A DNA stretch of 17,331 nt from a virus (lineage: Duplodnaviria > Heunggongvirae > Uroviricota > Caudoviricetes): IMG/VR virus record IMGVR_UViG_3300036790_000223; one strand, given 5' to 3'. The notes under the pieces were generated by a model. The model was not told the DNA's origin. It made no database searches and saw only the letters and a program-made list of their open reading frames with translations. The translations under genes and the position numbers were made by a program. Below, in pieces: positions 13,188-13,242 of the stretch (position 1 is the first letter of the stretch; every line of letters begins with the position of its first letter).

Positions 13188-13242
13188 GGGCTCATCAGCA
13201 CCGGCCTTACCGGTGGACGCGGGTTGCCCCCGCGTTTCGCCC
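13188..13242 (-). ncRNA. Type II hammerhead ribozyme
   Basis: GGGC GAAA CGCGGG GGCAA CCCGCG UC / CACCGG UAAGG CCGGUG CUGAUGA GCCC. Complete core with stem II 4 bp (open), stem III 7 bp and stem I 6 bp; GUC cleavage triplet; intergenic. Confidence 0.9.

Follow-up and report, generated by a model that had tools for sequence, protein, structure and literature searches.

A predicted type II hammerhead ribozyme without the usual pseudoknot between two genes of an uncultured soil phage

Introduction

For phage and prophage hammerhead ribozymes that flank genes, Perreault et al. (2011, PMC3088659) demonstrated cleavage both in vitro and in E. coli. In most hammerheads of the type II permutation, loop I forms a pseudoknot of at least 4 bp with the nucleotides just 3' of stem II (PMC3088659), and removal of this pseudoknot lowers the cleavage rate more than 100-fold at 0.5 mM Mg2+ (Perreault et al. 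2011, PMC3088659). The consequence of self-cleavage for a bacterial message is illustrated by the glmS ribozyme of B. subtilis, where, on the account of Collins et al. (2007) given in PMC3328962, the resulting 5'-OH makes the downstream RNA a substrate of RNase J1. Both RNase J and RNase E are encoded by mycobacteria, which serve here to exemplify the actinobacteria that are the likely hosts.

The ribozyme considered in this study is of a kind already known, hammerheads between phage genes having been described since 2011, and it represents one more member. It is found in a phage of about 117 kb from a soil metagenome, an uncultured high-GC phage whose host is probably actinobacterial. The whole stretch of DNA analysed (17,331 nt, hereafter the window) is a tailed-phage structural region of 65% GC. 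On the plus strand are genes for the portal, for a protein of 788 aa whose N-terminus is ParB-like, for a MuF-like head protein and for an Abhydrolase_8 protein; a cassette of about 2 kb on the minus strand comprises, in order, gene A, the ribozyme, genes B, C and D, a Pth2-like gene that a TAG interrupts, gene F, a tRNA(CUA) and gene G.

Results

Architecture of the ribozyme

Read on the minus strand from 13242 to 13188, the sequence is GGGC-GAAA-CGCGGGGGCAACCCGCG-UC/CACCGGUAAGGCCGGUG-CUGAUGA-GCCC, where the slash marks the predicted cut. By its sequence, the segment 13188-13242 is a genuine and complete hammerhead in the type II permutation, composed of the following elements.

13184-13242, minus strand: type II hammerhead motif matched by Rfam RF02276, the paired core being 13188-13242
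13239-13242, minus strand: 5'-proximal strand of stem II, GGGC, pairing with GCCC at 13188-13191 (from sequence and fold)
13235-13238, minus strand: core GAAA, G12 A13 A14 A15.1 (from sequence and Rfam alignment)
13217-13235, minus strand: stem III hairpin of 7 bp including A15.1-U16.1, loop GGCAA (from sequence, fold and covariation)
13215-13216, minus strand: predicted cleavage site, after C17 (C13216; from hammerhead numbering on the Rfam alignment)
13199-13215, minus strand: stem I hairpin of 6 Watson-Crick bp and a possible U-G, loop UAAGG or AAG (from sequence and fold)
13192-13198, minus strand: core CUGAUGA, C3-A9 (from sequence and Rfam alignment)
13188-13191, minus strand: 3'-proximal strand of stem II, GCCC (from sequence and fold)

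The hammerhead core is defined by C3 U4 G5 A6 N7 G8 A9, G12 A13 A14, the A15.1-U16.1 pair and H17, and all of these are present, as CUGAUGA at 13198-13192, GAAA at 13238-13235, U13217 and C13216. Stem III pairs A13235-G13229 with C13223-U13217, and stem I pairs C13215-G13210 with C13204-G13199, to which U13209-G13205 may add one further pair. Stem II, formed by G13242-C13239 and G13191-C13188, is a helix of 4 bp left open, the hallmark of type II, with stems I and III capped by loops exactly as in the MFE fold. The three stems (6-7 bp in I, 4 bp in II, 7 bp in III) contain no mismatch. The original prediction of a type II hammerhead with a complete core and three perfect stems is thus borne out by the sequence, the Rfam model and the MFE fold alike, and its coordinates were all correct when the minus-strand sequence was re-read.

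Statistical support and folding

When the whole window was searched against 4227 Rfam families, Hammerhead_II (RF02276) was matched over model positions 1-66 of 66 with E = 2.8e-5 and 40.2 bits, which exceeds the gathering score of 37 by just 3 bits; a covariance-model search had been proposed as a check on the type II assignment, and the assignment passed it. Even when matches with E up to 1 are admitted, the 17.3-kb window yields no other ribozyme. Its core pattern occurs once in the window and in 0 of 200 shuffles, and a permissive descriptor of the full motif returned 0 matches in 1000 dinucleotide-preserving shuffles.

The MFE fold of 13180-13250 (71 nt) is exactly the three-way junction, at a modest folding z-score of -1.77. 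Whichever of the trial flanks were included, the hammerhead was either the MFE fold or no more than 1.9 kcal/mol from it; alternative folds compete once flanks are included, the probability that all hammerhead pairs form being 0.06-0.33. For a 201-nt piece the global MFE is a different, non-significant fold, which matters little because the upstream portion is coding RNA under ribosomes.

Relatives in Streptomyces phages

The closest sequence relatives are type II hammerheads of Streptomyces phages. Six type II copies of 41-55 bits occur within 5 kb of phage VieEnRose (ON526983, 42008-47062; locus L127), and the best-matching one (L127:2500-2563) is 82% identical to the window copy over 53 nt, with an identical stem I, CACCGG/CCGGUG. 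In a joint alignment with the six copies, the window copy keeps 17/17 pairs, and compensatory changes are found in 10 of the 17 across the whole set. Stem III shows such changes relative to the VieEnRose copies; three of the four stem II pairs are invariant. The placement is similar as well: the distance from stop codon to motif is 2 nt in the window and -1 to 7 nt in VieEnRose (40 nt in one case), and that from motif to the next start is 16 nt compared to 11-29 nt.

All six VieEnRose copies pass the gathering score of Rfam. They occupy successive gaps between the genes of the 63-74 stretch, and the GenBank record annotates none of them. Phages phiRKBJ001 and Yara (L128, L129) contain candidates by the permissive descriptor that did not reach Rfam E <= 0.01.

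Loop I and the 3' tail

A pseudoknot of at least 4 bp is typical of type II hammerheads, if not strictly defining, and the window copy does not have it, the longest pairing between loop I and tail being 1 bp. No partner helix of at least 4 bp for loop I was found in either flank within 50 nt on each side. A pseudoknot of at least 4 bp is present in 72% of 135 other viral type II matches, compared to 42% when the tails are shuffled, and the extent of pairing between loop I and tail places the window copy in the lowest 2% relative to this set. Alignment with the VieEnRose copies shows loop I to be shorter by about 4 nt and the 3' tail to carry a 3-nt deletion; the loss of the pseudoknot is explained by these two changes, which remove exactly its two partners. 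What the alignment leaves is at best a 2-bp GG/CC remnant, in competition with the outer pairs of stem II. The original prediction had noted that no loop I partner was visible, and the flank search, the comparison with 135 matches and the alignment agree in upholding that remark.

Metagenomic members with an identical stem I have clearly covarying pseudoknots, and two members of this subtype with 5-nt loops have a perfect 5-bp partner farther along the tail. Loops of 3 nt are present in 15% of the viral type II matches, which implies that a class devoid of the pseudoknot exists. As judged from its loop and tail, the window copy belongs to a minority class of type II hammerheads. Without the customary pseudoknot the ribozyme need not cleave fast in the cell, and at cellular Mg2+ the reaction may be slow or incomplete. 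An extended stem II, continuing past a 3x3 internal loop through G13246-C13184 and two G-U pairs, was also considered as a place where loop I might dock; it was rejected as too weak and is absent from all folds.

A separate observation concerns three short-loop type II hammerheads (L146:75-121, L148:12344-12390 and L150:137-183) whose 3' tail starts with CCCAUCAG, complementary to CUGAUG of the core. The resulting CCCAUCAG/CUGAUG helix could compete with the active fold at these loci. In L146 and L148 the tail continues to ACCAA, a perfect 5-bp partner for the loop I sequence UUGGU.

The junction of genes A and B

Genes A and B, read from the same strand, are 77 nt apart, and this gap is taken up by the ribozyme, which is in sense orientation with respect to both. 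The other features of the cassette are as follows.

13245-13619, minus strand: gene A, an orphan of 124 aa from a TTG start (annotated at 97 aa in public contigs)
13168-13183, minus strand: purine-rich ribosome-binding region of gene B, GGAAGGG at 13183-13177 and AGGAAA at 13173-13168
12967-13167, minus strand: gene B, 66 aa, phrog_1933 (PHROGs E = 2e-27)
12830-12970, minus strand: gene C, downstream context
12663-12830, minus strand: gene D, downstream context
12316-12666, minus strand: amber-interrupted Pth2-like gene, downstream context
12024-12323, minus strand: gene F, downstream context
11920-11992, minus strand: tRNA(CUA), downstream context
11595-11780, minus strand: gene G, downstream context

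Gene A ends in TGA at 13247-13245 and the ribozyme begins 2 nt later; from the end of the motif (13184) to the TTG of gene B (13167) there are 16 nt. The predicted new 5' end, 13215, is located 48 nt ahead of that TTG, and by position the ribosome-binding site of gene B would remain on the 3' cleavage product. The original prediction had given the same picture, with the motif starting 2 nt past the stop of the first cassette gene and a cut at 13216/13215, 48 nt before the TTG, that leaves the ribosome-binding site on the 3' product; every one of these positions was confirmed. The sense-strand intergenic placement described by Perreault et al. (2011) is found here too, the ribozyme sharing its strand with seven genes and the tRNA.

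Gene A has a weak match to phrog_636; a database search for its homologs matched only gene A itself, and the related-locus search found no relatives of it in viral contigs. Gene B, the first gene on the predicted 3' product, has more than 1000 homologs and belongs to a widespread family of small phage proteins of unknown function. A scan of 11400-13900 for consensus promoters and terminators, which does not cover actinobacterial promoter types, found none inside the cassette, a result compatible with a single cassette transcript without being proof of it.

The plus-strand gene at 11389-11592 is the only confident gene of the window that ends in TAG (the other 11 checked: TGA in eight, TAA in two). 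It abuts the amber-suppressor cassette, and if its TAG were read through, the reading frame would be extended by 22 codons up to a second TAG.

Conservation among relatives

A JGI contig 99.83% identical to the window has 18 differences, none of them in the ribozyme. The only other copy of the ribozyme is in this 99.8% identical strain, and it offers no informative differences. Five long contigs with relatives of gene B (L122-L126) have no hammerhead. One of them, L122, is from a true relative of the phage (portal 73% identical, MuF-like protein 57%, same synteny), and there an ORF unrelated to gene A holds the position of gene A and overlaps gene B directly, so that no room for a ribozyme is left. 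The reverse cassette of L122 (3678-4377, compared to 11595-13619 of the window) is a much shorter one between head genes and consists of gene B and two other small genes. Given this short cassette at the same place, the cassette of the window appears to have grown by gaining gene A, the ribozyme, genes C and D and the Pth2/tRNA module.

No gene of the cassette recurs at any of 120 further viral hammerhead loci or at the 17 loci whose stem I is of the same subtype. No orthologous locus keeps the ribozyme, which is thus specific to this lineage. In a megablast search the cassette matched none of 50,697 phage records, and the related-locus search found relatives of the MuF-like protein neither in viral contigs nor in metagenome contigs. 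In the genome of about 117 kb, no further hammerhead was detected in the window (E up to 1) or in the 5.5 kb beyond it on the longer contig (L001), and the arrangement noted by Perreault et al. (2011), several hammerheads bracketing genes, is therefore not seen in the window plus 5.5 kb.

The Pth2-like, gene F and tRNA(CUA) module

The Pth2-like gene, a gene F homolog and a tRNA(CUA) occur together at 5/5 loci, namely the window and L130-L133.

Window, 11920-12666, minus strand: module
L130, 3317-4126: module
L131, 4688-5595: module
L132, 337-1106: module
L133, 2989-3747: module

At all five, the Pth2-like gene opens with a leader of 3-8 codons that has a start codon, followed by an in-frame TAG and then the conserved domain; in the window the GTG is at 12666, the TAG at 12642-12640 and the stop at 12318-12316. 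Residues directly after the TAG align with homologs that have normal starts. The gene F homolog, of about 100 aa, overlaps the end of the Pth2-like gene, and the tRNA(CUA) is nearby. On the window protein alone, Pfam PTH2 scores 17.9 bits, below the threshold of 23; PF01981 is found, however, in most of its 102 homologs (41-65% identity), and the name peptidyl-tRNA hydrolase has been given to several of them, which makes the Pth2 label originally given to the gene acceptable.

No hammerhead was found at the other module loci, either by Rfam (L130, L131) or by the permissive descriptor (L130-L133). With the ribozyme missing from four other module loci, it is not a component of the module, and in the window it is merely located three genes upstream of it. 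The original description of the ribozyme as standing at the head of the Pth2/tRNA transcript is not supported: genes B, C and D intervene, the module loci elsewhere and L122 do without a ribozyme, and a common transcript is only presumed.

The idea that the tRNA(CUA) is an initiator reading TAG at the start-codon position of the Pth2-like gene was considered and rejected. Initiator tRNAs are recognised by a set of identity features, and measured against these the tRNA(CUA) has a C1:G72 pair, C11:G24 and an anticodon stem without GGG/CCC. Two tandem tRNA(CUA) (3977-4050 and 4053-4126) directly follow the Pth2-like/gene F pair in L130 (108 kb), and a tRNA-Met (2823-2898) is situated about 450 nt upstream of the pair. 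In L133 (JGI contig Ga0597210_0000024, 62.6 kb) the module is placed amid HSP70-like, glycosyltransferase, methyltransferase and aminotransferase genes, a context that looks cellular or giant-phage-like rather than typical of a tailed phage.

Discussion

Based on the collective evidence of core, stems and placement, the ribozyme is best understood in the ordinary way, as cutting the cassette RNA between genes A and B, after C13216, and we put the probability of this reading at roughly 0.6. Transcription of the cassette would start from the divergent region upstream of gene A, and the 55-nt motif would fold once it is clear of the polymerase and once the ribosome terminating at the gene A UGA has departed. 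Self-cleavage after C13216 would leave a 2',3'-cyclic phosphate on C13216 and a 5'-OH on C13215, and since only the 4-bp stem II joins the two products, they should then separate. The message of gene A would end in the 7-bp hairpin of stem III with its 2',3'-cyclic phosphate. The downstream message would begin with the GC-rich stem I hairpin, flush at the 5' end without an unpaired nucleotide and bearing the 5'-OH, and it would retain the ribosome-binding site and start of gene B. In sum, the stability, and hence the dosage, of gene A would be uncoupled from that of genes B onward. Such uncoupling had been proposed in the original prediction; it is the standard reading of phage hammerheads (PMC3088659), and a geometry like that of VieEnRose argues for it by analogy.

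The further suggestion that the 5'-OH stabilises the downstream mRNA is unsafe, considering that the 5'-OH made by glmS signals decay by RNase J1, as reported in PMC3328962. Any protection would more plausibly be owed to the hairpin that begins flush at the 5' end than to the 5'-OH. The point has importance beyond this locus, in that a 5'-OH made by a ribozyme is not automatically protective in hosts with RNase J, which corrects a common assumption.

The most serious alternative, which we consider unlikely though by no means negligible, is that of a decayed or crippled hammerhead, derived from a working phage ancestor, whose cleavage in the cell became negligible with the loss of the pseudoknot. 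It would persist as a pair of GC-rich hairpins between the genes, whose effect would at most be to slow exonucleases or to keep the two genes spaced. The shortened loop I and the tail deletion, affecting exactly both partners, point in this direction, as do the lack of a substitute partner within 50 nt on either side, the bottom 2% rank in loop I-tail pairing among the 135 viral matches, the rate cost of more than 100-fold at low Mg2+ (PMC3088659) and the presence of a lone copy that has no conserved orthologue. However, about 13 core positions and 17 base pairs are all intact, which is unexpected for a neutral relic in DNA of 65% GC. The 3-nt loops in 15% of the viral type II matches, and with them the existence of a pseudoknot-less class, speak against an equation of short loop with decay, and minimal hammerheads also cleave, just more slowly, in a reaction that is irreversible.

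A conditional ribozyme is a clearly more remote prospect, improbable in our estimation. Lacking the tertiary clamp, the ribozyme would have its rate set externally, by ribosome traffic at the gene A stop, by a protein or RNA partner or by Mg2+, and would so time the release of the downstream block with its amber-gated Pth2-like gene and suppressor tRNA. The geometry would allow it, a ribosome of the usual footprint terminating at 13247-13245 being expected to cover stem II and GAAA; the competing folds found when flanks are included, with a probability of 0.06-0.33 for all pairs, and the translation-control module contained in the downstream block are consistent with it. The argument is purely inferential, though, and the flush placement after a stop codon is common to the ordinary, pseudoknot-bearing copies of VieEnRose, so that no special explanation is needed; besides, the ribozyme is absent beside the module elsewhere. 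In its most specific form, to which we assign slightly lower odds still, the proposal is that of a naturally unclamped type II hammerhead, gated by terminating ribosomes or by a trans factor that replaces the pseudoknot, which sets the timing or dosage of the Pth2-like/suppressor-tRNA RNA. If true, it would link RNA self-cleavage to a stop-codon read-through switch. Chance resemblance, with GC-rich intergenic hairpins happening to carry hammerhead-like core words, draws on the mere 3 bits above the Rfam gathering score and on the modest z-score of -1.77 for the 71-nt segment, but it is highly improbable in view of the 0/1000 shuffles that give the motif, the E of 2.8e-5 after 4227 families are counted, a strand, intergenic placement and spacing all like those of known phage hammerheads, and the 82% identity to an authentic Streptomyces-phage copy of higher score.

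The locus adds one well-defined hammerhead to the many known between phage genes and by itself changes little. It offers a clean natural example of a type II ribozyme in which core and stems have been kept perfect while both pseudoknot partners have been lost. It also marks a likely RNA-processing site just upstream of the amber-gated Pth2-like/suppressor-tRNA block, which is useful for transcript mapping there. The ribozyme is unusual only in being solitary and in having no pseudoknot.

Regarding the known systems, the ribozyme shares with type II hammerheads (RF02276; PMC3088659) the catalytic core, the permutation, the short open stem II and a position on the sense strand between small phage genes, and it differs from most members by the missing pseudoknot of loop I with the 3' tail and by standing single instead of arrayed. 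There exist clear analogies to the array of VieEnRose, which lies in a high-GC actinophage, as the ribozyme probably does too, and is likewise placed directly after stops and shortly before the next starts. In VieEnRose, however, the copies have retained their pseudoknot, UGG(C)/GCCA, and sit at nearly every gene junction, whereas the window copy is solitary, with loop I shortened and the tail reduced by 3 nt, and no flanking genes are common to the two. With glmS of B. subtilis, as far as it is treated in PMC3328962, the ribozyme would have in common that self-cleavage in the leader of an mRNA leaves a 5'-OH on the coding part and thereby decides the fate of the message. The glmS ribozyme belongs to another class, depends on a metabolite and, on the same account, promotes decay by RNase J1 through its 5'-OH; in the ribozyme described here the new 5' end would be buried in a hairpin, and the outcome could for that reason be a different one.
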